Positions 48,444-64,000 are shown, counted from the first letter of the stretch. The stretch is 64,000 nucleotides of DNA from Bacilli bacterium (GCA_024680795.1 JAILBR010000030.1:7594-71593), one strand, 5' to 3'. The notes: generated by a model not told the origin, from the letters alone. Made by a program: numbers and translations.

Positions 48444-48477
48444 TTAACAAACTTTTTAATTATGTTTGTTGTTAAAA
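48444..48477. repeat. Left copy of 34-bp direct repeat flanking the HipA-like gene
   Basis: TTAACAAACTTTTTAATTATGTTTGTTGTTAAAA. Contains the inverted half-sites AACAAAC/GTTTGTT and overlaps the gene's stop codon (48472-48474). Confidence 0.9.
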
Positions 48478-49767: not shown

Positions 49768-49773
49768 ATTTAT

Positions 49774-49801
49774 ATTATATAAAATTTAACAAACTTTTCA
49801 A
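49774..49801 (-). promoter_or_regulatory. Putative promoter of the HipA-like gene, embedded in the right repeat; predicts a leaderless mRNA
   Basis: On the minus strand: TTGAAA (49801-49796), 16-nt spacer, TATAAT (49779-49774), then only 6 nt before the ATG (49767). No Shine-Dalgarno sequence is visible. Confidence 0.45.
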
Positions 49802-49819
49802 TTATGTTTGTTGTTAAAA
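49786..49819. repeat. Right copy of 34-bp direct repeat flanking the HipA-like gene
   Basis: TTAACAAACTTTTCAATTATGTTTGTTGTTAAAA, 33/34 identical to 48444-48477, located 1342 bp away. Confidence 0.9.
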
Positions 49820-49886
49820 AACAAAATTTGGTATTACAATACCGAAAAATATTAATTTTTGATATCAGTTATGCTAACATATTTCC

Positions 49887-50552
49887 ATGAAAAGAATAGT
49901 TTATCATGGCACGGATCACATAATTGAAAAGCCATTATTTGGGTATGGTGAAAGGCACAATGATTACGGCTTAGCTTTTTATTGTGCCGAGAATATCGAT
50001 TTAGCAAAAGAATGGGCTTGCAAAGAAAAACCTAATGGCATTGTAAACAAATACGAAGTTGATATAGATTCATTTAGAATTTTAGATTTGACTGATAAAA
50101 ACAAGTACAGTGTTTTAAATTGGATAGCAATTATTCTTCATTTTAGGGACGTGGATGATGATATCAAAAATCAATTTGATATAGAACTTCAATTTCTTGA
50201 AGAAAACTATTATATAGATGTTGAAAAATATGATGTGATTATTGGATACCGCGCTGATGACGCATATTTTAGATTTCCACAAGCGTTTATCAGAAATGAG
50301 ATAACAGTGGAGAAACTGGAAGAAGTGTATTTATTAGGAGATTTAGAAAAACAGATTTCTTTTAAAAGCGAACGATCATTTATGCAATTATTATTTGTCG
50401 ATTATTTTGAAGTGGATGAAGAATATCATCAACGTTATATAGAAAGAATTAATAAGGCTAAGAAGAAGTTTTCTCAAATATTAAATGATGAAAGAAGAAA
50501 TACTACTGGAAGAAGATTGAGAGATTTGATTTTTGGAGAGAAAAAAAGATGA
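49887..50552 (+). CDS. DUF3990-like protein with ADP-ribosyltransferase-like H-Y motifs
   Basis: N-terminus IVYHGTDH...HNDYGLAFYCAENIDLAKEWA fits my recollection of the DUF3990 profile. It also resembles the HG[ST]...G-x-x-FY-x-A strands of H-Y-E ARTs. Confidence 0.7.
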   Translation: MKRIVYHGTDHIIEKPLFGYGERHNDYGLAFYCAENIDLAKEWACKEKPNGIVNKYEVDIDSFRILDLTDKNKYSVLNWIAIILHFRDVDDDIKNQFDIELQFLEENYYIDVEKYDVIIGYRADDAYFRFPQAFIRNEITVEKLEEVYLLGDLEKQISFKSERSFMQLLFVDYFEVDEEYHQRYIERINKAKKKFSQILNDERRNTTGRRLRDLIFGEKKR

Positions 50553-51550
50553 TTGATTATTATGACAAAAGTTTAATAGTGGAATTATTCGAACATATTT
50601 TTTCTATTGCCTTAACTAGAAGAATGAATCCAAAAGCTTTAGAACATCTTATTTCCAATTCCAGGATAGCAAACGATTTAGAAAAGGGTGATTCTAGTTT
50701 CCTAAATGATTGTTATAAACCAAAGCTAATTGAAGATTTGTTTAAAGCAAAACTGACAAAGGAAGAATGGGAAAGCCATTATGATATTTGCTTATGGGTT
50801 AGCATGATGTATGTTTCTTTGCTCTTTAAATATAAAAAATCATTTGAGTATCTTTTCTTATATATTTCCATTGAAGAGATGCATGATAAATTTTATTTAT
50901 ATCATGAAATGGATATTACTCAACTATATAGTTATTTTGAAATGAAGGTAAATAAAAAAACCTTATTGTCATCACTAATGAAAAAACATCATTATTCTTC
51001 TTCCTCGCTATCGGTTGCTAGTGGAATAAGTGTTAACACAATTGAAAAGTACTGTAAAAGCGATGAAGCTTTATATAGAGCCAGTTATGAAAATATTTAT
51101 ATGTTAAGTCATCTTTTACATGTTAAAAGCAACATTTTCGCTAGACAGTTAATACTTGCTGATGAGATTACAAAATATAGAAACGATTACGATAATATGA
51201 TAGAAAAGTTAGGACTATTTTTTGCTTGCTATTATGATAGAAACATCGCTAAAGAAAAGTTTGAATACGATAAAAGCACACAAAGATATCGTTCTGCAAA
51301 GATCAATGATTTATTTTTGCTTGTGATTAAAAATATAAATGAGTTACCTGAGAAGTCTCCTATTGACTATAATACAATCCTTGTTTTAGTTATGAATGAA
51401 GTTAACATCGAGAAAGAAGAACTGGCTTATTTTAAAAGAATAATTGTTATCAGTGAAAACGAAGCATACGATTTAGACAAAAATAGCAAAAAACCGATAT
51501 CGAATGATGTAAGAGAAACTAGTGTTGTTTTATTAGAAAAAGATAATTAA
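50549..51550 (+). CDS. Hypothetical protein with DUF3791-like N-terminus and central HTH-like segment, translationally coupled to the DUF3990 gene
   Basis: ATGA overlap with the upstream gene. The central segment SSLSVASGISVNTIEKYCKSDE looks like an XRE-type helix-turn-helix. The domain assignments are tentative. Confidence 0.55.
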   Translation: MIDYYDKSLIVELFEHIFSIALTRRMNPKALEHLISNSRIANDLEKGDSSFLNDCYKPKLIEDLFKAKLTKEEWESHYDICLWVSMMYVSLLFKYKKSFEYLFLYISIEEMHDKFYLYHEMDITQLYSYFEMKVNKKTLLSSLMKKHHYSSSSLSVASGISVNTIEKYCKSDEALYRASYENIYMLSHLLHVKSNIFARQLILADEITKYRNDYDNMIEKLGLFFACYYDRNIAKEKFEYDKSTQRYRSAKINDLFLLVIKNINELPEKSPIDYNTILVLVMNEVNIEKEELAYFKRIIVISENEAYDLDKNSKKPISNDVRETSVVLLEKDN

Positions 51551-51602
51551 TTCCCCCTATCAAATAAGAAGTATTGTATAATAAGAATAACAAAGACATA
51601 TT

Positions 51603-52304
51603 ATGGTAGTAAGTATTGTCCTCATAGTGCTTGGAATGATTTCAATGTCTTTCTTTATCTATGGAAAGATTACTAACTATTCCATTAAGACTAATATCAT
51701 TAAATTAGTTACATCTTTATTATTTGTCGCTCTAGCGTTATATCTATATATCACCAAAGGATATCCACTCATTGGATTATTTATCCTTTTAGGTGGTATT
51801 TTTGGTTTATTAGGGGATGTGGCCTTAGGACTTAAACGTATCTTTAAAAATAAAAATAAGCAGCTTATATTATTAGGCTTATTCTTCTTCGCTATTGGTC
51901 ATATATTATATGATACTGGATTATATATCTGCTATTACATCCCAGGACAAATCGTAGCGATTATTATCCCAGTGATATTAGCCCCTTTATGTGGATCATT
52001 TGGTTCGATGTTATTAGAAAAGGTATGCCATCTCCATTATGGCAAATTTAAATATATTGGAATGTTCTATTATACCTGTGTCTATTCCTTATCACTCGTA
52101 AGCTTCTCCTTATTAGCGATTAATGGCTTTACTAATACATTCTTATGGATATTCTTTGTGGGTGCATTATTATTCGCTAGTAGTGATACGATTTTAGCCA
52201 AGACCTACTTTAGTGATAATGTTAAAAAGGTTGATCAGATATCAACAACCATTACCTATTATCTCGCTCAATTTGTGATTGCCTTCTCAATTTTCTTCTT
52301 ATAG
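51603..52304 (+). CDS. YhhN-family membrane protein (lysoplasmalogenase-like)
   Basis: Eight hydrophobic helices with the LLGDVALG and FASSDTILA motifs typical of YhhN/TMEM86. Extended -10 TGTATAAT upstream, at about 51576-51583. Confidence 0.8.
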   Translation: MVVSIVLIVLGMISMSFFIYGKITNYSIKTNIIKLVTSLLFVALALYLYITKGYPLIGLFILLGGIFGLLGDVALGLKRIFKNKNKQLILLGLFFFAIGHILYDTGLYICYYIPGQIVAIIIPVILAPLCGSFGSMLLEKVCHLHYGKFKYIGMFYYTCVYSLSLVSFSLLAINGFTNTFLWIFFVGALLFASSDTILAKTYFSDNVKKVDQISTTITYYLAQFVIAFSIFFL

Positions 52305-52321
52305 AAACATAAATGCTACAA

Positions 52322-52361
52322 AATAGAAAATAAATATGTCTATAGACATATTTTTTCTATT
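52322..52361 (+). terminator. Long near-perfect hairpin after the YhhN gene
   Basis: AATAGAAAATAAATATGTCTA / TAGACATATTTTTTCTATT: a 19-bp stem with a 2-nt bulge, centred at 52342/52343, followed by TTTT. Confidence 0.6.
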
Positions 52362-52450
52362 TTTAAACATTGTTAGACATGCATTGTAGCATTTGCTACA
52401 TATGGTGTCCCCTATTTCATATATAGATATAAAGTGATATTATTATCGAT

Positions 52451-52894
52451 ATGGAATTTAAAAAAGAAACTTTAACTGATGATGTCATAGAACAATTAAT
52501 ATCTTTATCAAAAGAATGGGTAGAAGAAGATTGTTGTTTTGGAATGGTCGCTAACACAAGAGATGATTTAAAAGAACCTCTATTTGTAGCAGTGGAAGAT
52601 AATATTATTGTTGGATATATATTTGGCCACTATTATGAGCAAGAAAAGAAAACCTCATATATAGAAATAGGGGAGAAGTGCTTTGATGTTGATGAACTAT
52701 ATGTCAAAAAAGAATATCGAGATCAAGGAATAGGAAGAATCCTATTTAATGTGATGGAACTAGAAGTTAAAGATAAATGTAAATATATAACTCTAGCGAC
52801 ATCTAATAAAGATTATAAGAAAGTATTAAAGTTTTATACGGAAATAGAAGATATGACCTTCCATAGTGCCTTCTTAATTAAAGAGATGAAATAA
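52451..52894 (+). CDS. GNAT-family N-acetyltransferase
   Basis: Motif A VKKEYRDQGIGRILF; 147 aa. Confidence 0.85.
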   Translation: MEFKKETLTDDVIEQLISLSKEWVEEDCCFGMVANTRDDLKEPLFVAVEDNIIVGYIFGHYYEQEKKTSYIEIGEKCFDVDELYVKKEYRDQGIGRILFNVMELEVKDKCKYITLATSNKDYKKVLKFYTEIEDMTFHSAFLIKEMK

Positions 52895-52905
52895 GTGTTA
52901 ATGCG

Positions 52906-52932
52906 TAAGTGCAAGGCACTTATTTTTCTTTT
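52906..52932 (+). terminator. Rho-independent terminator after the GNAT gene
   Basis: TAAGTGC-AAG-GCACTTA followed by TTTTTCTTTT. Confidence 0.6.
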
Positions 52933-52974
52933 CGATACAAAAAGTAAAAATTTTTGGTCATAAAAATGAAAAAT

Positions 52975-52998
52975 CCTCCTATTAGTTTAATGAGGAGG
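52975..52998 (+). promoter_or_regulatory. Hairpin sequestering the Shine-Dalgarno of the RhuM-like gene
   Basis: CCTCCTATTA-GTT-TAATGAGGAGG. The 3' arm is the AGGAGG SD (52993-52998), 8 nt upstream of the ATG at 53007. Confidence 0.45.
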
Positions 52999-53006
52999 TC
53001 TTTTAC

Positions 53007-54263
53007 ATGGCCAATGAAAATTACGAAATAATCAAGTTCAGTTATGGTGATATAGAACTTGATATAAAGGTATCACCAAAAGAAAATACTGTGTGGTTAT
53101 CTCTTAATGATATGTGTGTGCTTTTTAAGAGAACAAAACCATCAATATCTAAACATATAAGAAATATCCTACAATCAGAAGATAGTGATGAAAATTCAGT
53201 TGTTTCACATATTGAAACAGTTCAAGCAAAAATTGAAACAACTGCCTCTGATGGCAAGGTCTATGATGTTGATTATTATAGTCTAGATGTTGTTATGGAA
53301 ATAGGTAAAAGAACTAGATCGGATATAACCCCTATATTCTATAACTGGTGTATGGAAACTTTAGCTGATTTAAATGGAGAAAACGAGATACAATCTAACA
53401 TAGTTAGATATGAAAACGGAAATGTCTCATTAAATGTCAACTATTCCCCTGAAGAAAAGACTATTTGGATGACTCAAAATCAGATTGCAATATTATATGA
53501 AACAACTCAACCAAATGTCAGTATGCACATCAAAAATATCCTTGATGAAAGTGAGTTAGATTTGAATTCAGTTCATAAGAATTACTTATATACTGCCACA
53601 GATGGTAAACAATATTTTGTCTCACTTTATAACCTAGATATGATACTTGCTATTGGTTATCGAACTAGGACAAAAAAGGCAATCGAATTCCGAAGTTGGG
53701 CCACAAAGATTATCACTGAATATTTGTTCAAAGGCTATGTTGATAATAACGATTCGAATATATCCAAAGACTTTGTCAAAGATATCACCGCTTCAATAGT
53801 GAGACTTGATAGTAGAGTGTCTCAATTAGAAGTGAATCAAAAGCATTATTTTCTAGATAATATTATGATTCAAGATGGCCAAGCATTTGAGGCAAAAGTT
53901 TGGATGAATAAAATCATTGAAACCGCTCAAAAAGAAATAGTGCTCATTGATTCTTATGTGAATATAAATTCACTGGATTTGTTTAAAAACAAAAAAGAGG
54001 GTGTTTCTTTATATATTATTACTTCTTCAATCAAATTGAGACTATCGCAAGTTGAAATAGATTCTTTCAATAATGAATATGGTTATTTACAAGTGAAATA
54101 TGATGAAAGATATCATGATCGTTATCTAATTATTGATGATGAAGTGTTCTATGATCTAGGTAATTCCACTAATCACATGGGGATACGCTTCAGTAGTGTC
54201 AAGCAAATCAAAGATATAGATTTCATAGATATAATAAGAAAAAGAATAAGAGAAGTTATCTAG
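53007..54263 (+). CDS. RhuM-family protein with duplicated N-terminal RhuM/ORF6N-like DNA-binding domain and HDRYLIID C-terminal domain
   Basis: Two tandem copies of the module ...TVWLSLNDMCVLFKRTKPSISKHIRNIL...DGKVYDVDYYSLDVVMEIGKRTRS... and ...TIWMTQNQIAILYETTQPNVSMHIKNIL...DGKQYFVSLYNLDMILAIGYRTRTKKAIEFRSWAT.... The C-terminal region has IVLIDSYV...YHDRYLIIDDEVFYDLGNS. Confidence 0.8.
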   Translation: MANENYEIIKFSYGDIELDIKVSPKENTVWLSLNDMCVLFKRTKPSISKHIRNILQSEDSDENSVVSHIETVQAKIETTASDGKVYDVDYYSLDVVMEIGKRTRSDITPIFYNWCMETLADLNGENEIQSNIVRYENGNVSLNVNYSPEEKTIWMTQNQIAILYETTQPNVSMHIKNILDESELDLNSVHKNYLYTATDGKQYFVSLYNLDMILAIGYRTRTKKAIEFRSWATKIITEYLFKGYVDNNDSNISKDFVKDITASIVRLDSRVSQLEVNQKHYFLDNIMIQDGQAFEAKVWMNKIIETAQKEIVLIDSYVNINSLDLFKNKKEGVSLYIITSSIKLRLSQVEIDSFNNEYGYLQVKYDERYHDRYLIIDDEVFYDLGNSTNHMGIRFSSVKQIKDIDFIDIIRKRIREVI

Positions 54264-54328
54264 AGGTGCACGGTTGATTCTAAGCATCTTTTTAATTTTT
54301 TTACATTTTTTCATCTTTCCAACATCAC

Positions 54329-54343
54329 GACATAAATAATGTC
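54329..54343. promoter_or_regulatory. Palindromic candidate operator, site 1 (GACAT-N5-ATGTC)
   Basis: GACATAAATAATGTC. The 21-nt block ACATAAATAATGTCACATTGA (54330-54350) recurs at 56904-56924 with 20/21 identity. A TATAGT -10-like hexamer lies at 54355-54360. Confidence 0.55.
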
Positions 54344-54392
54344 ACATTGACTTCTATAGTAAAGGTGCAGTCGATAACAAGGAGGTAAGTTG

Positions 54393-55034
54393 ATGAGTGT
54401 TGTTGTTGCAATAAAAGAAGAAGGAAAGGTTTATATCGGTGCTGATTCACAAGTGACCAAAGGCGGAACTAGAACCACTTTAAAAAATCCTAATAATTAT
54501 AAGATTTGGAAAGTTGATGGTTGTGAGAACTGCCTAATGGGTCATGTCGGTAATCTCAGAGATGCGAATATCGTGAGGTTAATGAGAAATGTCGTTGATG
54601 ATTACGACGAGTTCTATGAAAGAGTCAACTACCGATATGTGGTGAAGTATCTAGTTCCAGAAATCATCAAAAGCCTAAAAGAAGCTAAGTTCCTTAAAGG
54701 GGCTGATGATTATCTCGACTTCATGGATTCTAGTTACCTATTCGCCTATAAGGACAAGTTATTCTGCATCAACACTGATTGCTCGGTGATTGAAATCGAT
54801 GACTATGTGGCGATTGGCAGTGGATCTCAAGAAGCGATTGGTAGCTTATTATCCACCGAAGGACAAAATCCAAGAAAGAGGATTGTTAAGGCCATCAAGG
54901 CCAGTGCGGCGAGTGACATCTATGTCGATTACCCAATCATCCTAACCGATACAGGGGAAATGAACTTCGAAGTTGTAACAGAGAAAAATGAAAATAAGTA
55001 TCTCGGAAACACTAAAGGAGGAGATAAGTCATGA
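54393..55034 (+). CDS. Proteasome beta/HslV-like Ntn hydrolase with N-terminal Ser
   Basis: After Met removal the N-terminus is SVVVAIKEEGKVYIGADSQVT, which aligns to HslV [21 protein letters not shown] with Ser at position 1 and Asp at position 17. It also has the YKIWKV Lys region and the VAIGSGSQEAIGSL GSG motif. AAGGAGG lies upstream; the ATG is at 54393 and an in-frame TTG at 54390. Confidence 0.75.
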   Translation: MSVVVAIKEEGKVYIGADSQVTKGGTRTTLKNPNNYKIWKVDGCENCLMGHVGNLRDANIVRLMRNVVDDYDEFYERVNYRYVVKYLVPEIIKSLKEAKFLKGADDYLDFMDSSYLFAYKDKLFCINTDCSVIEIDDYVAIGSGSQEAIGSLLSTEGQNPRKRIVKAIKASAASDIYVDYPIILTDTGEMNFEVVTEKNENKYLGNTKGGDKS

Positions 55035-55147
55035 AAGTATTAGGATTTATATTCCTGGGGTTATGTCTCATAACCCTGGGAATTGTCAGTGTGAAATTAG
55101 GGTGGGTAGATTATATCTACCACTGGTTTGAAGGGTTGGTGAAATAG
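55031..55147 (+). CDS. 38-aa single-pass membrane peptide (not in the supplied ORF track)
   Basis: ATGA overlap with the upstream stop. Translation is MKVLGFIFLGLCLITLGIVSVKLGWVDYIYHWFEGLVK. It ends 1 nt before the next ATG and exactly fills the inter-ORF gap. Confidence 0.45.
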   Translation: MKVLGFIFLGLCLITLGIVSVKLGWVDYIYHWFEGLVK

Positions 55148-55148
55148 G

Positions 55149-55580
55149 ATGGAATATTTTAATAAGATTGTGATTACTACCAGTGTGGAAGATGTCTTTA
55201 TTAGAGATGGTAGACAAGTAGTGATATCTAACTGCAAGCATCATATTGAAGAAGGATGTTTATATATCGCCGCTGAACTTGGTGATATCGATATCGTCAT
55301 TCCTCATGGGAGATATGAAAGCATCAAGATTAATACCTCAACTGGAGATGGACATATCGAATTAAACGATGCTTCAATTGGTCAATTATCGTTCATATCT
55401 TCGACTGGAGATTTATATCTAGACGCGGAATGTGACTATGTGTCATTTAATTCCCTATGTGGAGACTTAATTCGTTCTAATAATGGACATAGACTTCAAT
55501 CATCTCTAAAGACAAAAACCGTTAAGACAACAGTAACTAACCAAACTCAAGATTGGAGAAATGGAGAGAGGTATAAATAA
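55149..55580 (+). CDS. DUF4097-like all-beta protein
   Basis: Repeated short strands ending in S/T-G-D (INTSTGDGHIEL, FISSTGDLYLD, FNSLCGDLIR), as in DUF4097/LiaG-YvlB-type beta-helical proteins. Confidence 0.6.
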   Translation: MEYFNKIVITTSVEDVFIRDGRQVVISNCKHHIEEGCLYIAAELGDIDIVIPHGRYESIKINTSTGDGHIELNDASIGQLSFISSTGDLYLDAECDYVSFNSLCGDLIRSNNGHRLQSSLKTKTVKTTVTNQTQDWRNGERYK

Positions 55581-56899
55581 TGAAATTTAATAAGAATGAT
55601 TATTTCGATTATAACGGTGATAGATTAACGATTCTTGATCTACTTGGAGAAGGTGGACAAGGAGAAGTATATCTCGTTAGTTATAAGGGACAAAAGCTCG
55701 CCTTTAAATACTATAAGGACATTCCTAGTGACGACTTCAAATATAATTTGAAAAATAACATCACTAAGGGCAGTCCATCTTCTACCTTCTTATGGCCTAA
55801 AGAATATATCGAATTCGATGATGATTCATGTGGCTATCTCATGGAACTTAGACCTAAAGAATATGTCTCATTTGTCTCATATCTAACCGGCACGAATAGG
55901 TTTAAGAATAAGAGGATTATGCTTAACTGGTGTATTGAACTAGTGAAAAGTTTCAAACTCTTACACGAGAAAGGCTATTCATATCAAGACCTTAACGATG
56001 GCAGCTTCTTCCTTAATCCTGAAAATGGAAAATTACTAATCTGTGATAACGATAATGTCACCGCGGATAAACGTAGTTTAGGGGTATTAGGAAAGATGAG
56101 ATATATGGCCCCAGAAATCGTGAGAGGTGATAAAGATAAAAATACGGGAGAAAGGCAAATGCCTGATACCCATTCTGACCGTTTCTCTTTAGCGATTATC
56201 CTCTTCTTGGCATTATGTATGGGCAATCCATTTGAAGGGGAATGTTTAAAGAAATATGTGATTGTTGATGAGAAAGCGGAATATGAGATGTTTGGTAGTA
56301 AGCCAGTCTACATCTATAGCGAACTTGATAAAACAAATCGTCCGATTAGAGGCTATCACACCGCGGTCATTAATAAATATCCAGAACTGCCTACTTATAT
56401 CAAAGAAGCATTCCATAGAACGTTTGTTGATGGGCTTAAAGATAGAGAGAATGGTAGGACCAATGAGCTAGAGTGGTTGAAGTTATTATGTAAATATCGT
56501 GATGAACTGATTACTTGCTCATGTGGGAAAGAATATATCTATGGATTCAATGAAAAGAAACATAACGATAGATGCCCATATTGCAAAAAGGAAACAAGAA
56601 GATTCTGCTATCTACAGATTGGGAAAAATAGAATCCTTTTAGAACCTAATAAATATATCTATGAGATCCATATCGATAAGTATTCATCTAACTATAACTT
56701 AGCGGTTGGCAAAGTCATCGTTAATAAGAATAATCCAGGATTATGGGGCATCAAATTGCAACTAAATAACGATATACTTATCAAAGATAAGAGTGGTAAA
56801 GAAAAGACCATTACCAAGGATGGAGTAATTCCGATTGTTAATGAACTAAAAATCAAGTTCAGTGATACGTCAATTGGACAAATAATAACTAACCAATAA
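55580..56899 (+). CDS. Ser/Thr protein kinase with C-terminal zinc ribbon and beta-rich domain
   Basis: Gly-loop LLGEGGQGEVY, beta3 Lys LAFKYY, catalytic loop YQDLNDGSFFLN, DFG-equivalent ICDNDN, YMAPE and DRFSLAIIL. These are followed by CSCGKEY...RCPYCKKE. TAATG overlap with the upstream gene. Confidence 0.88.
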   Translation: MKFNKNDYFDYNGDRLTILDLLGEGGQGEVYLVSYKGQKLAFKYYKDIPSDDFKYNLKNNITKGSPSSTFLWPKEYIEFDDDSCGYLMELRPKEYVSFVSYLTGTNRFKNKRIMLNWCIELVKSFKLLHEKGYSYQDLNDGSFFLNPENGKLLICDNDNVTADKRSLGVLGKMRYMAPEIVRGDKDKNTGERQMPDTHSDRFSLAIILFLALCMGNPFEGECLKKYVIVDEKAEYEMFGSKPVYIYSELDKTNRPIRGYHTAVINKYPELPTYIKEAFHRTFVDGLKDRENGRTNELEWLKLLCKYRDELITCSCGKEYIYGFNEKKHNDRCPYCKKETRRFCYLQIGKNRILLEPNKYIYEIHIDKYSSNYNLAVGKVIVNKNNPGLWGIKLQLNNDILIKDKSGKEKTITKDGVIPIVNELKIKFSDTSIGQIITNQ

Positions 56900-56902
56900 C
56901 AT

Positions 56903-56917
56903 TACATAAATAATGTC
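56903..56917. promoter_or_regulatory. Palindromic candidate operator, site 2 (TACAT-N5-ATGTC)
   Basis: TACATAAATAATGTC, part of the 21-nt block shared with site 1. A TAAGAT -10-like hexamer at 56929-56934 sits at the same 11-nt offset as in site 1. Confidence 0.55.
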
Positions 56918-56967
56918 ATATTGAATATTAAGATAAAAACGAAAACAAAATAGGAGAAAGAAAAATA

Positions 56968-57690
56968 ATGAAAGACAGAACAATAGCCGAAGGCATTAAA
57001 AAACAAGAATTGAACCTCATATTCATCATCGATAATAGTGGTTCTATGGAAGGAGAAAAGATTGGCGCGGTCAATAATGCGATTAGAGATGTGATGAGCA
57101 TTATGCCAGAAATCCAAGAAGATACTTCTGATGCAGAAATTAAGATTAGCGCTTTAACATTCTCTGACCACTGTAAATGGGTTTATAAAGAACCACAAGG
57201 TGTTAATGATTTTAAATGGAATGATATCACCACGGAAGGAGGAACTGACTATTCTAAGACTTATGATGAATTAGCGAAGTTCCTTTGTAAGAAAGAAAAT
57301 GGTGGTCAAATGCCAGATATCGGGGGAGTGGCCCCAATCATCATCCTTATGAGTGATGGTATGCCTACAAGCCCAGATTGGATGGATCATCTTAATAGCT
57401 TACGAAAGAAAGGCTGGTTTAAAGTCGCTCTTAAATACGCCTTAGCGATTCAAATCGATACTCAAGAAGCAATGGATGTCTTATCCGCTTTCACTGGTAA
57501 TCCAGAAACAGTGCTAAAAGTCTATACCGCAGAAGCTTTAAGAAAAGTAATTAAGGTTATTGCGATTACCGCTAGTAAAGTCAAATCATCCTCTAGCCAA
57601 GTCAGTGGCGGCACTCTTATCTCTAAAGAAGAAGAGGCTAAACAAGAAATCGCTAAAGGATTAGAAGAAATCTCTGACGTGGAATGGTAG
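56968..57690 (+). CDS. vWA-domain protein (TerY-like), paralog 1
   Basis: MIDAS motif IIDNSGSMEG, plus TEGGTDY and LMSDGMPT. C-terminus is ...EEISDVEW. Confidence 0.88.
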   Translation: MKDRTIAEGIKKQELNLIFIIDNSGSMEGEKIGAVNNAIRDVMSIMPEIQEDTSDAEIKISALTFSDHCKWVYKEPQGVNDFKWNDITTEGGTDYSKTYDELAKFLCKKENGGQMPDIGGVAPIIILMSDGMPTSPDWMDHLNSLRKKGWFKVALKYALAIQIDTQEAMDVLSAFTGNPETVLKVYTAEALRKVIKVIAITASKVKSSSSQVSGGTLISKEEEAKQEIAKGLEEISDVEW

Positions 57691-57704
57691 GAGGATAAGG
57701 AAAG

Positions 57705-58415
57705 ATGATGGATAGAATTGCCAAAGAAAAACTAAATATCATCCTTCTTATCGATGCTTCCAAGTCCATGCAGGGTAATAGAATCAAACAAGTAGATCAA
57801 GCAATATACGATATTCAAGATTATCTAATTGATTTAGGAAAAGAAAACACAAACGTTGATTTTTACCTCACCTTAATACCATTCGCAACGGGGTCCTCCT
57901 TTTATCAAAATCAAGTTTCCACTCATATTGAAAACTTCCGTTACGATGGTATTAAGTGTGGGGGGTATTCAAACCTCCATCTCGCCTTAGATAATCTCGG
58001 GGACATCATGAAGAAAGAATCTAAAGGTGGAATTATGCCAGATTTTGGAGGGGCATCGCCAATCATCCTTCTTCTTACTGATGGTCATCCAACCGGAAAT
58101 GCTTATAAGGAATCATTAGAAAACATTAAAGATATCCCTTGGTATAAAGCTGCTTTGCGATACGGAATCGCGATTGAGCTAAATGATGATAGGACGATGA
58201 AAGTGTTAAGCGACTTTGTGGGTAAGAATGGAGATGTGATTAACTGTTATCATTCTTCCTTACTCAAAGATATTATCAAGGTTATTGTCTTAACCGCGAG
58301 TAAGGTGAGATCAAGCTGCACGAACATCGCTAACGGACCTCATGTCACTCAAAACCAATTAGCCCAACAATATATTGCAGAAGCATTAAGTGATATCGAT
58401 GCATCGGGGTGGTAG
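57705..58415 (+). CDS. vWA-domain protein (TerY-like), paralog 2
   Basis: MIDAS motif LIDASKSMQG, plus LLTDGHPT. Collinear with paralog 1 (IIKVIVLTASKVRSS versus VIKVIAITASKVKSS). C-terminus is ...LSDIDASGW. Confidence 0.85.
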   Translation: MMDRIAKEKLNIILLIDASKSMQGNRIKQVDQAIYDIQDYLIDLGKENTNVDFYLTLIPFATGSSFYQNQVSTHIENFRYDGIKCGGYSNLHLALDNLGDIMKKESKGGIMPDFGGASPIILLLTDGHPTGNAYKESLENIKDIPWYKAALRYGIAIELNDDRTMKVLSDFVGKNGDVINCYHSSLLKDIIKVIVLTASKVRSSCTNIANGPHVTQNQLAQQYIAEALSDIDASGW

Positions 58416-58417
58416 AA

Positions 58418-59242
58418 ATGTATTACGTATTTAATAAGTCCAGTATTGGATATGCACACATAAAAAATAAAAAACCATGCCAGGATTATTCCGCTTCATA
58501 TCAGGATAACGAGCGAGTGATTATCACGTGTTGTGACGGCCATGGAGGCGCTCAATATGTGAGAAGTCAAATTGGTTCAAAAATCGCTAGTAATTCCATA
58601 ATAAATGTATTTTCTTCAGTCAATTCCCGCTTCTTTTTGGAAAATGATATAGAAAAAGTGAAGTTATTGGTCCTTTGTGAATATAACAAATTAGTGGAAC
58701 AAGAACTCAATAAAAAGCCAATTAGGAAGAAGGATTTGAAAGGACTAAAAGAAGAAGACATTGATATGCTAAGGTTCAATCCGATGAAGGCTTATGGGAC
58801 CACTTTATCAGGTGCGATGATCTATAAAAACCATCTCTTAGTCATCTCAATTGGAGACACAGAAGTATTAGGAATTAGGAAAGGCGAACTAGTAAAAATA
58901 TTCGATAATTCCAATGACCCCGCTGGTAATGTTACCTACTCGATGTGCCAAGAAGATGCCTATAAATATCTACGTGTTGCGGACCTAGACATTAGGGATT
59001 TTGATGGGATACTTCTATGTACAGATGGCCTATCTAGCCCCTATCAAAGCTATGACAACTTCAATGAATCGTTTGTTAGACCAAGTGTCCATCGTGTGAT
59101 TTGTTCAAAGTCAATTCGTGAACTAGATAGCAATATCGAAAAGATCGCTACTAGGTTAGGGGTAGGGGATGATGTCAGCTTATCGCTCATCTTAAGTGAT
59201 AAAACAAACGAAAAATTTTATCGAAGGAGAAATATAGAATGA
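58418..59242 (+). CDS. PP2C-family protein phosphatase
   Basis: CQDYSAS...CCDGHGGAQ, SIGDTEV, LCTDGLSS and GDDVSLSLIL metal-binding motifs. ATG at 58418, 3 nt after the upstream stop; the track ORF uses the GTG at 58409. Confidence 0.85.
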   Translation: MYYVFNKSSIGYAHIKNKKPCQDYSASYQDNERVIITCCDGHGGAQYVRSQIGSKIASNSIINVFSSVNSRFFLENDIEKVKLLVLCEYNKLVEQELNKKPIRKKDLKGLKEEDIDMLRFNPMKAYGTTLSGAMIYKNHLLVISIGDTEVLGIRKGELVKIFDNSNDPAGNVTYSMCQEDAYKYLRVADLDIRDFDGILLCTDGLSSPYQSYDNFNESFVRPSVHRVICSKSIRELDSNIEKIATRLGVGDDVSLSLILSDKTNEKFYRRRNIE

Positions 59243-59988
59243 AAAAGATTACAAAATTATTAACTACATGTTTAGCGGCCTTAACTTTAGTGGGCTGCAA
59301 TAAAGGCGAAGAATATATTCCAAATATGTTAGGAAGAGTATTCGGTGATTTTGACTATAACGGAGTCTTTCTTACCGAATATGCGATTAAACAAATTAAA
59401 GTTGATGAAGCTAAAAAACTTGTCGATATTAGACCAAATCTAAAAAGAAACTATAAGTTAAGAGAAACTACTGAAGAAGATATTAAAACAGTTCTCTCTA
59501 AATATGCTTCTCTAGTCACTACCGTCAAATACTACATCAGTGGTAATGAAGAACAACAAGTGAGAAGTGATATCTATCAAGGTACAGATTTCAAGTATTT
59601 ACTTGAAAATAACTACTACGAACCATTTGGACAGATGAGTGTTAAATATATCTTTGTTGATGATGATCTTCTTGATGAGATGGAAGCCGCTAATGAGGAG
59701 TTTATCAATAATAAACAACATCTAGTTAGCCCATTTAATGAACCATTTACCTATCACACTAGTGAAGAAGATAAGTTAATCGTCCAAACTCATCATTTTG
59801 CGGAACTACCAGCTTCTATCAGCGGTGGTATCGGCTCAACATTTAGACAGGATTGTGAGCTTCTCTTCGATGAAGAAGGAAAAATAACATTCTGGCAGTC
59901 GTCATTAGGGTTATATACATCTACTCCTACTGGCACTGTCAAAGAAGGATATGTGTTTGAAGTAGGATTCGAATGGATCAGTAAATAG
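59239..59988 (+). CDS. Lipoprotein, function unknown
   Basis: MKKITKLLTTCLAALTLVGC signal peptide plus lipobox. ATGA overlap with the phosphatase gene. Confidence 0.75.
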   Translation: MKKITKLLTTCLAALTLVGCNKGEEYIPNMLGRVFGDFDYNGVFLTEYAIKQIKVDEAKKLVDIRPNLKRNYKLRETTEEDIKTVLSKYASLVTTVKYYISGNEEQQVRSDIYQGTDFKYLLENNYYEPFGQMSVKYIFVDDDLLDEMEAANEEFINNKQHLVSPFNEPFTYHTSEEDKLIVQTHHFAELPASISGGIGSTFRQDCELLFDEEGKITFWQSSLGLYTSTPTGTVKEGYVFEVGFEWISK

Positions 59989-60000
59989 AAAGGGAAGAGA

Positions 60001-61056
60001 ATGGACTATCAAAGTGCGTTTACTAAAATTATTAATCAACACGGATTAGAAATATTGGACAATAACTTTCTAGTCCATTCTTTTCTTTTAGATTTGATTG
60101 GTGGAGATAAGCGAAGTATCGAACTTGCGGAAGCTTTCTTTATTCTTAATGATGAGAGCGTTTATCTTAAAATCTCAGGAAAGAAACTAAGCGAAATAGC
60201 GCCTTTGCTTGATGGGCTGATTAGGACTTTAGATAGATCATATACCTCATTAATTTATCTACTATCTATTGAGCCTCTTTTAATCCATCTATTCCCCTAT
60301 GAATATGTTAAATTGAATCCGAATATCAAACATGGTGCCCCTAAAATCGTAAAAGCACCTCATAATAAAAGCATGCAAAGTGTGCATATAACTCCAGTAC
60401 AAATTACCCCACAGGTAAAGAAAAAAGTAGTGGTGGACTCCTACATAATTAATGCGAGATGTCGAGGGTTATCTATTGTCTGTTCGAATAATAAGAAGAT
60501 AAGAATTATTGATAAAGGTTACCATGATGTGACTAAGCAGTTTAAGCCTAAGAAGAGTAAAAACATTAGAACCTTAAATATTGAAGGTAGACATAATTCT
60601 TTCTATCTATTTTTACCTAAGAAAAGATATAAAAATGTCACTATCAATTTCAAAGGAGTGAAGTTGTCTCTAACTGGTGACCATAATAATAACTTCAAAT
60701 GCGAACAACTTGAGATAAATGCGAATAAGATTAACGGACAAATATTTGTGGACTCTGATGTGATATCTGGAAAAATAGATAAAGGCACTATTCAGTTCTA
60801 TGGGGAGATAAAGAATATTGTTCTTAACTATGGAGATGTCGATGTCAAAGCGCTTATTAAGGGAGTAAATGCGAATAGATATATGTGTAAAGTGAATAAA
60901 GGCAATATCGAAATCAACTTCTTAGACATCATTTTAAAATCTAAGGTTAGACACATCTTCAAAGGCTCTATTAATGTTCATAACACATATAATGTGAATG
61001 GCAGACAGATGGAGCTAAAATTAAGTACTGATCGTGGCAAGATAAATGTGCTTTGA
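60001..61056 (+). CDS. Hypothetical two-domain protein with DUF4097-like C-terminal beta region
   Basis: Helical N-terminal about 110 aa. The C-terminal half has repeated short beta strands (VKLSLTGDHNN, INGQIFVDSDVISGKIDKG, NKGNIEINF, TDRGKINVL) resembling the 55149 protein. Confidence 0.6.
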   Translation: MDYQSAFTKIINQHGLEILDNNFLVHSFLLDLIGGDKRSIELAEAFFILNDESVYLKISGKKLSEIAPLLDGLIRTLDRSYTSLIYLLSIEPLLIHLFPYEYVKLNPNIKHGAPKIVKAPHNKSMQSVHITPVQITPQVKKKVVVDSYIINARCRGLSIVCSNNKKIRIIDKGYHDVTKQFKPKKSKNIRTLNIEGRHNSFYLFLPKKRYKNVTINFKGVKLSLTGDHNNNFKCEQLEINANKINGQIFVDSDVISGKIDKGTIQFYGEIKNIVLNYGDVDVKALIKGVNANRYMCKVNKGNIEINFLDIILKSKVRHIFKGSINVHNTYNVNGRQMELKLSTDRGKINVL

Positions 61057-61069
61057 TATACAGTTGTTA

Positions 61070-61098
61070 TTGTTAATATTACATCAAAAATGTATTAT
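61070..61098 (+). promoter_or_regulatory. Putative promoter of the WYL regulator with embedded palindrome, site 3 (TACAT-N5-ATGTA)
   Basis: TTGTTA (61070-61075), 17-nt spacer, TATTAT (61093-61098). The palindrome TACATCAAAAATGTA (61080-61094) occupies the spacer and the start of the -10. Confidence 0.45.
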
Positions 61099-61115
61099 TA
61101 ATCAGAGGTAACTAT

Positions 61116-62096
61116 ATGGGTAAAGCCGCAATGTGCATCAAAATGCTCCAGATTTTAAATACTGGGCGCACCTACAAAGTTAGTGAACTAGCAGACCTTT
61201 TGGAAACCAATCCAAGAAATGTTATCGAATATAAAAAAGAACTCGATGAAGTGGTTTCTGATTCTTTTGGTACTGCTGGTTTTTATATTGAGACAATACC
61301 TGGCCGTTATGGCGGATATCGTCTTCATGGTGATGTGGCGATGCCAGCCTTAAGATTAACCGAAAATGAAAAAGTATCTTTTATAGAAGCTTTAGATTAT
61401 CTTTCATCCCGTAATGACTTCATGGCAAAAAATGACTTCCAAGTTGCTGTTGGAAAAGTTTTTGCTGCTCTTATTACTAAAGAAATCAAAAAAGAAGAGA
61501 ATGTTTTAATCATTAACCGCTATCCATTAGTGATGCCGCAAGAGGAAATTGAACATCGTTATAATGTGATCAAAGTTGCGATTAAGCAGAATAAAAAAAT
61601 TAAGTTTAACTATCTTTCCCAAAAGAACACTGTTAAGGAAAGAATCTTTGATCCATATGAGTTATTTATGTATAACAACGCTTGGTTTGTAATAGGATGG
61701 TTAAATTCTGAAAACCATCCAGGTGTCTGCTGGTTTAAGTTAAACCGTATGCAAGATATCTCAATGACAAACGAAAAATATACGATGTGGAAATACTATC
61801 ACAAAGCCGATTATATCGATGAATATGGCTTCAAAAGTAATGGTGAGTGGTACCATGTTGAATTTATAGCCCATGAGACATACGCAAGTTTATGTAGAGA
61901 AAGAATATATGGGAAAAACCAAGTAGTTGAAGTTATTGATGATAATTCCACTAAAGTAAGTGTGGATATGCAAAATAAAGAAAACATCAGGGTGTTCATC
62001 CTTGGATTTGGAGAGAATCTTGATGTATTAGAGCCCGATTGGCTTAAAGAAGATCTTAAGAATATCGCAAATGCGATGTTAGAAAAATATAGGTAG
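61116..62096 (+). CDS. HTH-WYL-domain transcriptional regulator (YafY/BrxR/CapW-like architecture)
   Basis: N-terminal wHTH IKMLQILNTGRTYKVSELADLLETNPRNVIEYKKEL. WYL domain IKFNYLSQKNTVKERIFDPYELFMYNNAWFVIGW. Has a C-terminal extension. Confidence 0.85.
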   Translation: MGKAAMCIKMLQILNTGRTYKVSELADLLETNPRNVIEYKKELDEVVSDSFGTAGFYIETIPGRYGGYRLHGDVAMPALRLTENEKVSFIEALDYLSSRNDFMAKNDFQVAVGKVFAALITKEIKKEENVLIINRYPLVMPQEEIEHRYNVIKVAIKQNKKIKFNYLSQKNTVKERIFDPYELFMYNNAWFVIGWLNSENHPGVCWFKLNRMQDISMTNEKYTMWKYYHKADYIDEYGFKSNGEWYHVEFIAHETYASLCRERIYGKNQVVEVIDDNSTKVSVDMQNKENIRVFILGFGENLDVLEPDWLKEDLKNIANAMLEKYR

Positions 62097-62104
62097 GTAA
62101 GAAT

Positions 62105-64000
62105 ATGAGAAAAAGAACAAAGACTTTAATCACAATCGTCGCAGCGGCTATGGCAATTCCTGCTCTTTTTGGATGTTCAGATAAGAGCTTTAGTCAATGG
62201 GCTGCCGATGTTGAAAATGGTTGGAATGATTTTGTCAATGACTTAGACGATACCGGTGACAAGATAAAAGATGGCTTAGATGATGCAGGGCAAACAATAA
62301 AGGATGGAATAGAAGATGCTGGACAAAATATTCAAGATGGTTGGAATGATTTTGCCGACAATGTTAAAGATACAGTAGACAATATCAGTCAAGGCGCCCA
62401 AAGCTTTGGAAATCAGGTTGGAGAGTGGTTCACACAGACTTATCAAAATGCAAGCAATGTGACTAGAGATGTTACTAATAAAATCAAAGATTTTACTGTA
62501 GATACTGCTACTAAAATTGGTGATTTTTGTATTGATACGAAAGATAGAATTATGAGCATGTCTTTTACTCCTGATTCATTTGGCAAGTTTACTATAAGAG
62601 ATGCTGCTAGATATGATGTTGATTTGACAGAAGAATATTACAATGATATCGAAACATTTGTTTATTCTTTGGTCTTTCATGAGTTTTCGAAGATTTATAG
62701 AACGTTTGTGGCTAAAGCAACAAATCCTCTTACAAATGAAGAAGTATTAGGTATTGCTGTGGAAGGTGAGTTTGATTCTGAACTTATTGATGATGGTAAC
62801 TGTCAGTATTTCTATGATGAAGAAGACAATGTTTATTCAATAGTAGGCTTTGTTCAAGAGGCTGGTGCTACTCCATTTACTGAGGAAGAACTACGTCAGG
62901 GAATCGATGTTGTCAATGCTGGTGATACTGATGATGACATGGTAAATTACATAATCGGATTAGATATTCCTGATTTTACTAGTCATTTTGTTAGACAAAA
63001 TAAATATGTTGTTTTTGGAATAAAGAATGATGTTATTTTCTTTGACCAATATGATTATTCGCTTTTAGCGTGTTATGAAAATGGCAAAATTGAATATGGC
63101 GGATTATATAACTACGATAATCAAGAATGGATTGATACTGATTATTTTGGAAATGCAAACGAGCATATAACTACTGATGGCAGTTTGTTAACTGGTGCGA
63201 ATACAGTTGGATTAGAGTTATCAACAAGCGAAATAATTGAAAAAATGAGACAAACTAAATTTTCGTTCAGCTTTGATCATTTTTCGAATATGCTTTCCAA
63301 CATAGGTTCTCTTTTGCAGAGTGTTAAATCCAACATTGAAGAGAATACATTTTTAGGCTATAACATGGCTGACATTCTTAATAAGACAGGTGCATTTAAC
63401 GAATCTGACGTTTTAAAAGCAGCGGATAATCAGTTTAATATTTCACCTATACCTGAAAATCCTGATGCAACTGTTTCTCAAACTACTAAGACAGTTCTAA
63501 TTGTTGTTGCTGTTATATTAACTATATTAACGTTATTTGTGTCCTTATTTATGAGAGCATATCCATGGATTGGCTCAATATTCTCGGCTCTATCTGCAGT
63601 AGCAGTTTATATCGCATTTGAAATTTGCAATGGAAAAAACTTTACACAATTAAACTGGACAAAAATCATTATTACTGCGATTGCTGGTGCGTTGGCTCCT
63701 TTCTTAGGGAAAGTTAGTGGTTCTTTAGTTGCTGCTCTTACATCAACAATATTTACCATGATGGATGGCAATTCATTATTGGGTGGCGGTCTTACTTTCA
63801 TGTTTACTTTCATTGTTTCGATTATAATTGCCAATGTGTTTGAAAAGATTGCAAAGTTTATTGATAAAAAAATCCCGAAAATTGGTGAATTCATTGACAA
63901 TCATCAAATTACCTTTGGCCGTAAAAAATTGACTGCAGCCCAGGGAAGAATTCTAAGGCCAGAAGAATTAGATGATAATGCTTCAAGAAAACTATTCAAT
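62105..64000 (+). CDS. Large lipoprotein with 11-residue amphipathic repeats, a globular ectodomain and C-terminal multi-TM region; 3' end outside the window
   Basis: I translated 62105-64000 by hand and found no stop codon (632 codons). The N-terminus ends in the lipobox ALFGC. Residues 38-108 form 11-mer repeats (IKDGLDDAGQT, IKDGIEDAGQN, IQDGWNDFADN, VKDTVDNISQG). Hydrophobic helices lie at about 63490-63850. The start is 8 nt after the WYL gene stop. Confidence 0.7.
   Translation, partial: MRKRTKTLITIVAAAMAIPALFGCSDKSFSQWAADVENGWNDFVNDLDDTGDKIKDGLDDAGQTIKDGIEDAGQNIQDGWNDFADNVKDTVDNISQGAQSFGNQVGEWFTQTYQNASNVTRDVTNKIKDFTVDTATKIGDFCIDTKDRIMSMSFTPDSFGKFTIRDAARYDVDLTEEYYNDIETFVYSLVFHEFSKIYRTFVAKATNPLTNEEVLGIAVEGEFDSELIDDGNCQYFYDEEDNVYSIVGFVQEAGATPFTEEELRQGIDVVNAGDTDDDMVNYIIGLDIPDFTSHFVRQNKYVVFGIKNDVIFFDQYDYSLLACYENGKIEYGGLYNYDNQEWIDTDYFGNANEHITTDGSLLTGANTVGLELSTSEIIEKMRQTKFSFSFDHFSNMLSNIGSLLQSVKSNIEENTFLGYNMADILNKTGAFNESDVLKAADNQFNISPIPENPDATVSQTTKTVLIVVAVILTILTLFVSLFMRAYPWIGSIFSALSAVAVYIAFEICNGKNFTQLNWTKIIITAIAGALAPFLGKVSGSLVAALTSTIFTMMDGNSLLGGGLTFMFTFIVSIIIANVFEKIAKFIDKKIPKIGEFIDNHQITFGRKKLTAAQGRILRPEELDDNASRKLFN

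Follow-up and report, generated by a model that had tools for sequence, protein, structure and literature searches.

A TerY-P-like cassette with a proteasome-like peptidase arm and a WYL regulator, a candidate conflict system of gut and rumen Bacillota

What brings a proteasome-like peptidase into one gene cluster with the kinase, vWA proteins and phosphatase of a TerY-P-type phospho-switch? The question is raised by a 64,000-nucleotide (nt) stretch of a Bacilli bacterium genome (GCA_024680795.1, JAILBR010000030.1:7594-71593), the whole of which we call the window, where eleven co-directional genes on the + strand run from 54393 to the window end. Conflict systems widely include TerY-P triads as accessory modules, and the triads are found embedded in diverse systems. 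Judging from sequence and gene neighborhoods, we favor, with a probability of about 0.5, the reading that the cluster is a single co-regulated conflict cassette based on a TerY-P-type phospho-switch, most likely acting against phages or other mobile elements. A first-pass annotation had described eleven packed genes, and the open reading frame (ORF) listing, together with frame translation of the last 1.9 kb, bears this out, with coupling overlaps ATGA at 55031, TAATG at 55580, and ATGA at 59239, and with intergenic gaps all at or below 68 nt. Two starts need adjusting from the ORF listing. The peptidase gene starts at ATG 54393, 7 nt past AAGGAGG, where the listing opens at TTG 54390; and the PP2C ORF, listed as opening at GTG 58409, probably has its true start 2 nt past the vWA2 stop at ATG 58418 (the Met of MYYVFNK), as in orthologues.

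The evidence for joint regulation is a shared palindrome. Upstream of the peptidase genes in divergent related loci (L numbers below) there is a motif TACA-N7-TGTA, core ACAyaAATaATGT, and since a TATAAT-like box follows about 12 nt past it, the palindrome overlies the -35 region. In the window the exact 15-mer ACATAAATAATGTCA is present twice in 64 kb, once ahead of the peptidase gene and once, at 56904, within the 68-nt gap between the kinase and vWA1 genes, and the sole perfect TACA-N7-TGTA is in palindrome 3, ahead of the WYL gene. Relaxed to KACA-N7-TGTM, the pattern matches 3 times in 64 kb, as many as chance would give, and all 3 are within three cassette gaps totalling 256 nt, those before the peptidase, vWA1, and WYL genes; we estimate the chance of that placement at about 6e-8. 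A regular expression for the core finds 40 sites on the system strand vs 5 on the opposite strand in 754 kb of related loci, and 3 vs 2 in 809 kb of plain-triad loci. Sites in the related loci lie upstream of peptidase, kinase, and WYL genes: ahead of the Ntn gene in L008, L011, L013, L017, L022, L034, L036, and L053; after the kinase, at the same position as palindrome 2, in L033 and L053; and directly upstream of WYL in L034, L036, and L045. From this placement and strand bias we argue that the three units form one regulon. Position 54329, which had been given as the start of the locus, is not a gene start and is the first base of the first operator-like palindrome. A scan for consensus promoters and terminators gave nothing above chance, and the repeat search did not pick up the palindrome. 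There is also a direct repeat, TAGAGGTGCA / TAAAGGTGCA at 54261-54270 and 54360-54369, 99 nt apart, that brackets the first operator-like site.

The second line of evidence is recurrence of the gene set. A peptidase-based scan of species-representative genomes found 26 loci, and a kinase-alignment scan of metagenomes found at least 558 relatives in two tiers, a close tier with kinase identity of at least 59% (L033-L053) and a distant tier at 36-42% (L054-L112). The order from the peptidase to the 351-amino acid (aa) protein is kept in L002-L007 with Ntn identity of 67-78%; the homologue loci at 78% and 68% read peptidase, transmembrane (TM) peptide, small toastrack, kinase, vWA, vWA, PP2C, lipoprotein, 350-aa protein. 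In the close tier the kinase, vWA1, vWA2, and PP2C genes are followed by one for a protein with the same N-terminal helical domain as the 351-aa protein, and then by WYL. Overall the series kinase-vWA-vWA-PP2C-unknown-WYL, mostly with an adjacent Ntn gene, is found in L011-L053 and L124-L128, and 2 more kinase-relative loci that were looked up have the same architecture. The synteny of Ntn hydrolase, toastracks, lipoprotein, and WYL with vWA, PP2C, and kinase genes, on which the first-pass proposal depended, thus holds in many genomes. These comparisons yield a constant core, found again and again in gut and rumen Bacillota (more than 25 divergent loci): kinase, two vWA proteins, PP2C, a protein with a helical N-terminus and a C-terminus that varies, and WYL. 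Among the 13 close-tier, kinase-centered loci having enough upstream DNA, 8 carry the peptidase; it is a frequent optional arm, with the TM peptide, small toastrack, and lipoprotein as its satellites. Hence the idea that the extra genes are conserved as a set stands for the 351-aa-like protein and WYL, which are near-constant, and fails for the optional peptidase module and for the variable gene 11.

Could the cluster instead have no joint function, three independent units (one for the peptidase, one TerY-P-like, one of WYL plus cargo) being merely juxtaposed in a variable island? The modularity invites the question. The peptidase is found without the kinase set in ten loci (L009, L010, L012, L014, L017, L020, L022, L025, L028, and L029), the kinase set without the peptidase in five (L033, L040, L041, L047, and L050), and the order is shuffled in L031 and L013. 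Against this, the same partners recur with the order mostly kept at kinase identities of 59-87%, translational coupling joins the units, and one palindrome, specific to these loci and to this strand, stands ahead of all three. Because of the shared operator and the recurrent order, this is the rival most weakened, and we consider it a long shot.

A WYL regulator is the obvious candidate to bind the palindrome, since it is the only recognized DNA-binding protein in the cassette. It scores 3e-25 against the PADLOC WYL model, with a weak HTH_11 match in the L124 orthologue, and of the 26 close-tier loci with at least 5 kb of downstream sequence, 20 have a WYL gene no farther than 9 kb downstream (a table that is not de-duplicated). 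What follows WYL is variable. Gene 11, 8 nt past WYL in the window, has ApoLp-III/YtxH-like helical repeats and C-terminal TM helices, with only weak Pfam, PADLOC, and NCBIfam matches; among the compared loci it matches only L001, which is a short contig identical to the window, and it occupies a variable slot and is not a conserved cluster member. Elsewhere the slot holds a WHH-nuclease lipoprotein (L011, L019, L031), a MACPF protein (L005, L013), large lipoproteins (L033, L034, L053), JAB+E1-E2 (L038, L041, L050), a mad8/SspH-like gene (L048), or small ORFs with an MkoA-like helicase (L016, L124). The WHH loci (L031:10277-14841, L011:15943-19677, L019:8226-11660) encode a lipoprotein/TM protein whose C-terminus is a WHH nuclease toxin domain (4.6e-10), and they add small companion genes and a weakly MacB-like permease, looking like a polymorphic-toxin unit.

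That slot supports a different division of labor, in which the cassette is mainly a sensor and regulator of the post-WYL cargo (polymorphic toxin, pore former, or defense enzyme; here gene 11) and the peptidase only tunes the regulator. Unrelated large genes do lie within about 50 nt after WYL across loci, and WYL regulators are normally 5' of the system they control, as for CapW (PMC9122588). On the other side, L002, L004, and L007 are without WYL; the classes of cargo differ too much to share one output logic and could be mere island neighbors; and because palindromes also precede the peptidase and vWA units, the cassette is itself a regulated target. We judge a cargo-controlling role unlikely and continue with the cassette as a conflict system in its own right, its features being collected in Table 1.

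Table 1. Features of the cassette at the 3' end of the window, in order along the + strand.
Feature	Coordinates	Strand	Evidence or remark
Operator-like palindrome 1, CGACATAAATAATGTCACA (GACA-N7-TGTC), then TATAGT box	54328..54360	+	Upstream of peptidase gene
Proteasome/HslV-like Ser-Ntn peptidase, 213 aa	54393..55034	+	PF00227 1.1e-9
Single-TM peptide, 38 aa	55031..55147	+	ATGA overlap couples translation to peptidase gene
Small cytoplasmic toastrack (DUF4097) protein, 143 aa	55149..55580	+	PF13349 8.6e-6
Ser/Thr kinase with C-terminal Zn ribbon and ~100-aa beta-strand domain	55580..56899	+	Pkinase 2e-12
Operator-like palindrome 2, TTACATAAATAATGTCATA, then TAAGAT box	56902..56934	+	Inside kinase-vWA1 gap
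vWA1, TerY-like vWA protein	56968..57690	+	VWA (PF00092) 2.8e-8
vWA2, diverged vWA paralogue	57705..58415	+	VWA (PF00092) 4.9e-9
PP2C phosphatase	58418..59242 (ORF from 58409)	+	PP2C_2 (PF13672) 8.9e-31
Conserved lipoprotein, 249 aa	59239..59988	+	Lipobox LVGC
Adaptor-like protein, 351 aa	60001..61056	+	N-terminal helical domain, linker, C-terminal toastrack
Palindrome 3, TTACATCAAAAATGTAT	61079..61095	+	21 nt ahead of WYL start codon
WYL-WCX transcription regulator, N-terminal helix-turn-helix (HTH)	61116..62096	+	WYL (PF13280) 5e-13, WCX (PF25583) 1.5e-10
Gene 11, truncated lipoprotein/TM protein	62105..64000, runs past window end	+	Lipobox; translation

The peptidase is a distant member of the proteasome/HslV fold family. 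It scores 38.6 bits against PF00227, where the Pfam cut-off is 22.4, and profiles built from Protein Data Bank (PDB) entries match it to HslV 1m4y (8.5e-5) and to BPH 5ovu; PHROG_1040, "peptidase HslV family", matches at 1e-13. The N-terminus reads Met-Ser-Val-Val-Val, so that Ser2 is the residue exposed once Met is removed, and S2, D18, and K37 align with T1, D17, and K33 of 1m4y. Over 30 relatives, down to 31% identity, S2, D18, and G142 (the glycine of a GSG) are at least 90% conserved; K37 is invariant among the closer relatives and is K or R in most distant ones. True HslV it is not by the equivalog models, scoring 31 bits vs cut-offs of 137 and 158, and there is no HslU gene in the window's cassette. 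The family, a large one with 382 clusters (50% identity, E <1e-10), is without a name in any profile library searched, NCBIfam included. Some loci have 2-4 tandem peptidase paralogues (four in L039:990-3265, two each in L038:2118-3373 and L048:5488-6641), and some of these are without the Ser/Thr-2 nucleophile, which suggests heteromeric rings of active and inactive subunits.

Nearly all peptidase loci come from metagenomes of rumen or gut, in bins of Erysipelotrichaceae, other Bacilli, Acholeplasmatales, Anaeroplasmataceae, and Clostridia, with a patchy spread across Bacillota lineages. The carriers are abundant gut and rumen lineages, almost wholly uncultured, and the sole cultured isolate among the 26 is Liberiplasma polymorphum. 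Strain C05PYG of that species (L028:8691-12527) combines the peptidase with a coiled-coil protein, an IetA-like AAA+ ATPase, and a divergent WYL gene, with no kinase set, and is a possible experimental handle on the peptidase family. The pairing of coiled-coil protein and IetA-like ATPase recurs in other kinase-free peptidase loci, and a divergent upstream WYL gene (1.4e-12) is beside the peptidase/IetA-like set in L018, L026, and L028. L029 has the peptidase with an AAA_2/ClpB_D2 ATPase and PP2C. Other partners in kinase-free loci are genes of mobile-element or defense type, such as an SNF2 helicase, FRG with an apparent DNA methyltransferase, and the conjugation protein TraG with an apparent ClpP, the methyltransferase and ClpP being assigned by eye. 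L048 combines peptidases, an IetA-like ATPase, and the kinase set. The cassette ties a large stand-alone bacterial proteasome-homologue family to defense-island contexts, with three alternative partners, namely IetA-like AAA+, Clp-type AAA+, and the phospho-switch.

The phospho-switch enzymes are recognizable throughout. The kinase is active-looking from its conserved motifs: its alignment with relatives shows no change in the glycine loop, the Lys43 equivalent, D137, D156, or the APE motif. The zinc-ribbon cysteines C313, C315, C332, and C335 (CxC...CPxC) are invariant in 41 sequences. The AlphaFold2 model has a mean pLDDT (per-residue confidence score) of 79.6, and over 90 for residues 300-439, which form about 10 beta strands. 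Foldseek on the whole model finds only protein kinases, and the C-terminal region gives weak zinc-ribbon matches to PDB profiles together with weak S17 (OB) matches at E 0.2-0.4; an FHA-like sandwich and an OB fold are both candidates for it. The metal ion-dependent adhesion site of vWA1 is DNSGS, and the protein has a Ser-rich linker and an acidic C-terminus ending DVEW; in vWA2 the site is DASKS and the tail ends in Trp. The two are 32% identical (BLASTP 3e-50). vWA1 is 70-91% identical across close loci and it, not vWA2, matches the single vWA of plain kinase-vWA-PP2C triads; vWA2 is found in nearly all close-tier loci. We take vWA1 to be the orthologue of the single TerY-like gene and vWA2 to be a faster-evolving paralogue. 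PP2C motifs DGHGG and GDDVS are visible in translation. The kinase-vWA1 gap is an insertion hot spot in relatives, occupied by apparently unrelated ORFs of 77-234 aa (L033:11377-11826, L036:4369-4998, L045:11310-11543, L050:5530-5844, L053:11381-12085), where the window has only the operator-like site.

The first-pass annotation regarded the kinase as part of a separate upstream unit. Kinase-first order turns out to be normal for the triad clade, and what survives of the claim is the promoter/operator-like site in the kinase-vWA1 gap. The distant tier, about 59 metagenomic kinases, is made up of plain kinase-vWA-PP2C triads with no peptidase and no WYL.

The tails of these proteins are of some interest. 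Every TerY-like vWA protein, whether of the close or the distant tier, has a linker rich in Ser/Thr and an acidic helix, and its C-terminus is acidic with Trp usually as the last residue; DVEW, DWEW, DDGIQW, and DDWG are examples among the tails compared (window 57580-57690 and 58300-58415, plus L002-L127). Close-tier PP2Cs end in a basic-aromatic K-x-YY-K/R patch that plain-triad PP2Cs are without. The small toastrack ends W-x-x-G-E-R-Y-K (window 55540-55580), and most of its orthologues also end GERYK. We infer that the vWA and toastrack tails may be docking or phospho-acceptor elements. HbYX-like docking by the GERYK and K-x-YY-K tails was considered and dropped, the Tyr not always being penultimate.

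The remaining proteins are beta-rich or envelope-associated. Pfam matching agrees with the earlier domain calls of Ntn, DUF4097 in the 143-aa protein (25.7 bits, cut-off 22.9), kinase, both vWAs, PP2C, and WYL; the second DUF4097 domain is reached only through orthologues and hhalign. The 351-aa protein has no Pfam match by its own sequence, and 5 of 10 orthologues match DUF4097, best at 2.7e-7, one of them matching LiaF-like_C as well. Hhalign aligns the family over residues 144-271 to the small toastrack family at 95% probability and E 3.6e-8, giving a layout of a conserved N-terminal helical domain of about 100 aa, a low-complexity linker, and the C-terminal toastrack. The N-domain recurs with other C-termini, such as an apparent leucine-rich repeat in L019, seen by eye. 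A homologous-protein search with the 351-aa protein returned nothing but itself, and its AlphaFold2 model from the single sequence has pLDDT 34.6. The 38-aa TM peptide is conserved at 49-74% identity in L002-L008, L011, L033-L035, and L053. The 249-aa lipoprotein has 8 orthologues with a mean column identity of 64%, and its family has no Pfam or PDB profile match; it is detected solely in loci with the Ntn gene, including the kinase-free L014. Its lipobox LVGC and the LFGC of gene 11 were read from translations. In L002:16648-18145, and also in L004 and L007, a 389-aa lipoprotein and a small SWIM-domain protein come after the toastrack protein.

Such a composition could also describe an operon for envelope stress or surface homeostasis with no immune role, the lipoprotein and TM peptide sensing, the toastracks working as in Psp/Lia, and the peptidase doing quality control. 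Two DUF4097 toastracks, the LiaF-like_C match of one orthologue, the high conservation of the lipoprotein, and the TM peptide all suit it, as do the lack of PADLOC matches for most of the proteins and the location of the cassette on chromosomes and not on viral contigs. It sits poorly with the patchy species presence, varying flanks, and modular gene content, and with a low-GC island beside toxin-antitoxin-like and PADLOC-candidate genes. Moreover, both toastracks are without a signal peptide or TM segment, and among the neighbors scanned, which are only part of them, there is no PspA/PspC/LiaF-type match. We regard an envelope-stress or surface function as decidedly unlikely.

The island itself is in the low-GC DNA that precedes the cassette, a 28-30% GC stretch at window 48472-54263. 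It has a HipA-like gene on the minus strand (PDC-M03A 3e-11), a DUF3990 gene (PADLOC PDC-M42A 1e-41) beside an HTH-protein gene, a RhuM-like gene (PDC-S05 7e-85), a YhhN gene, and a probable acetyltransferase of 147 aa assigned by eye, and it looks like a toxin-antitoxin and candidate-defense island. In other genomes the neighbors of the cassette include MkoA-like helicase, JAB+E1-E2, SLFN/AlbA_2, and HNH genes. Farther off, window 27894-31328 encodes a 1144-aa helicase-like protein with weak PADLOC matches to PbeA (7e-12) and DpdF.

If the cassette is a conflict system, its parts could work as follows. The WYL protein would repress three promoters by way of the palindrome over the -35 region, and a ligand or a signal of damage would lift the repression. 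The kinase would phosphorylate the Ser/Thr-rich vWA tails or the adaptor linker, with PP2C resetting the switch, and the phosphorylation state would control assembly of vWA/adaptor complexes. Those complexes would license a self-compartmentalized peptidase, a role that IetA-like or Clp-type AAA+ ATPases may take in the sister loci, and the peptidase, possibly with the TM peptide, would act as effector, by toxicity or by processing, much like the protease of IetAS (PMC13069673). The abortive-infection role suggested at first pass is likewise conjecture.

Several findings weigh against the conflict-cassette proposal. About one third of kinase cassettes are without the peptidase and about half of the peptidase loci are without the kinase set, so the peptidase is not an obligatory effector. 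In L002, L004, and L007 the palindrome is still there ahead of the peptidase, with no WYL gene within 9 kb, and for that reason WYL is no more than a candidate binder. The kinase catalytic loop, YQDLND, is atypical, and there is no obvious alpha-C Glu. The window's cassette has no ATPase of any kind. The toastracks, lipoprotein, and TM peptide fit the envelope-stress explanation equally well. At the level of hidden Markov model (HMM) scans, the PADLOC TerY model has no match to vWA1, vWA2, or PP2C at E <=0.1, and the peptidase, PP2C, and toastrack proteins match no PADLOC model at all. Viral contigs have distant plain-triad kinases only, with no peptidase relatives and no close kinase relatives, although that result is neutral for host defense; on the same grounds we rejected a phage-borne origin.

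A more specific proposal is that these loci are an undescribed immune or conflict family of gut and rumen Bacillota, in which a proteasome-like Ser-Ntn peptidase is licensed by a Ser/Thr phospho-switch and paired vWA adaptors, not by an ATPase, under a WYL repressor with a dedicated operator. We put this forward tentatively, as something possible that we would not yet bet on. If true, prokaryotes would offer a case in which control of a proteasome-type protease depends on phosphorylation and vWA proteins. Confirmation of function would add a protease class to bacterial immunity and would provide a tractable model of effector gating by vWA/kinase/phosphatase switches. The cassette is in any case a compact TerY-P setting with a candidate output (the peptidase), a candidate regulator, and a mapped operator-like site.

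How does the cassette compare with systems already described? The closest is the TerY-P triad, consisting of a TerY-like vWA protein, PP2C, and a Ser/Thr kinase with a C-terminal zinc ribbon (Anantharaman, Iyer & Aravind 2012, as related in PMC11090510), the kinase being characterized elsewhere by a "zinc ribbon and beta-strand-rich domain" (PMC7159879). The window has all three enzymes adjacent in the order kinase, vWA, PP2C: the vWA protein has its metal-binding motif, the PP2C gene is next to a vWA gene, and the kinase has both the C-terminal zinc ribbon and the beta domain. Window and plain triads also have in common a vWA tail that is acidic and ends in Trp. The nearest annotated relative of vWA1, at 42% identity, is in an HTH / TerY-C / kinase / vWA / PP2C locus on the Prevotella plasmid pE2-28. 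Because of that locus, and because the distant kinase relatives form plain triads, we place the core as an offshoot of the TerY-P kind, in agreement with the relation proposed at first pass. It differs in having the vWA gene duplicated, an adaptor-like protein and WYL as fixed partners, often a proteasome-like peptidase, its own operator motif, and a kinase clade apart from the plain triads, at 36-42% identity. The vWA duplication had been listed as going beyond precedent; the duplication is real, but such duplication of TerY-like vWA genes around TerY-P has already been described in CoCoNuT loci (PMC11090510). There are no ter genes or restriction-type systems among the scanned neighbors, where no systematic screen for TerD, TerC, and similar was made.

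According to what PMC11090510 says in citing it, the TerY-P of Gao et al. 2020 is the only version with reported anti-phage activity. As represented in PADLOC-DB v2 it has the same three enzyme classes, and it may differ in its kinase, for which fusion to an OB fold is described. At most a partial Gao_TerY match had been anticipated for the window, and the PADLOC HMM scan gave none, no model covering the set. The window kinase matches only mad6 and PD-T4-6 in PADLOC, and the TerY model makes one marginal match, 1.3e-3, to a plain-triad vWA.

IetAS (Gao_Iet) is a protease-toxin/ATPase pair in which protease activity is required for defense (PMC13069673). It consists of the AAA+ ATPase IetA and the subtilisin-like (S8) protease IetS, and the window's cassette has neither. 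The likeness is one of logic, a protease paired with a regulator, and of neighborhood, the window's peptidase family adjoining IetA-like ATPases in sister loci L018, L021, L022, L026, L028, and L048. Those ATPases form one homology cluster, of which the L028 and L048 copies were scored by PADLOC at about 1e-38. IetA-like ATPases are also just upstream of the kinase in L047 (two copies, 1e-25 and 1e-31) and, by sequence inspection, in L050. The window's protease differs in being a proteasome-type Ntn hydrolase, with a phospho-switch where the ATPase stands elsewhere. With HslV and BPH it shares the PF00227 fold family, the N-terminal nucleophile at residue 2, and the Asp17 and Lys33 equivalents; it differs from them in the nucleophile, Ser and not Thr, in having no HslU gene, in its accessory-island setting, and in the tandem paralogues of some loci.

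For the regulator, the counterpart is CapW of CBASS, the cyclic oligonucleotide-based antiphage signaling system (PMC9122588), with the same HTH-WYL-WCX architecture, a defense-island location, and palindromes overlapping promoters, though binding by the window WYL is a prediction. CapW is at the head of its system, in keeping with the usual 5' placement, whereas the window WYL is inside or at the 3' end of the cassette and its three candidate sites are distributed along the cassette. Experiments on push-pull regulation exist for a vWA-kinase-FHA-PP2C operon, DRA0331-0334 of Deinococcus radiodurans (bioRxiv 10.64898/2026.01.23.701218). Compared by description, that operon also has a vWA protein, a Ser/Thr kinase, and PP2C with phospho-docking domains, and it differs in its separate FHA protein and KI-FHA-PP2C fusion and in having no zinc-ribbon kinase, peptidase, toastrack, or WYL. 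The literature search found no description of this gene combination, as the first-pass annotation had supposed. What is new here is a TerY-P-type module whose vWA gene is duplicated, which has WYL and an adaptor as fixed partners and an operator of its own, and to which a proteasome-like protease is joined as an arm.

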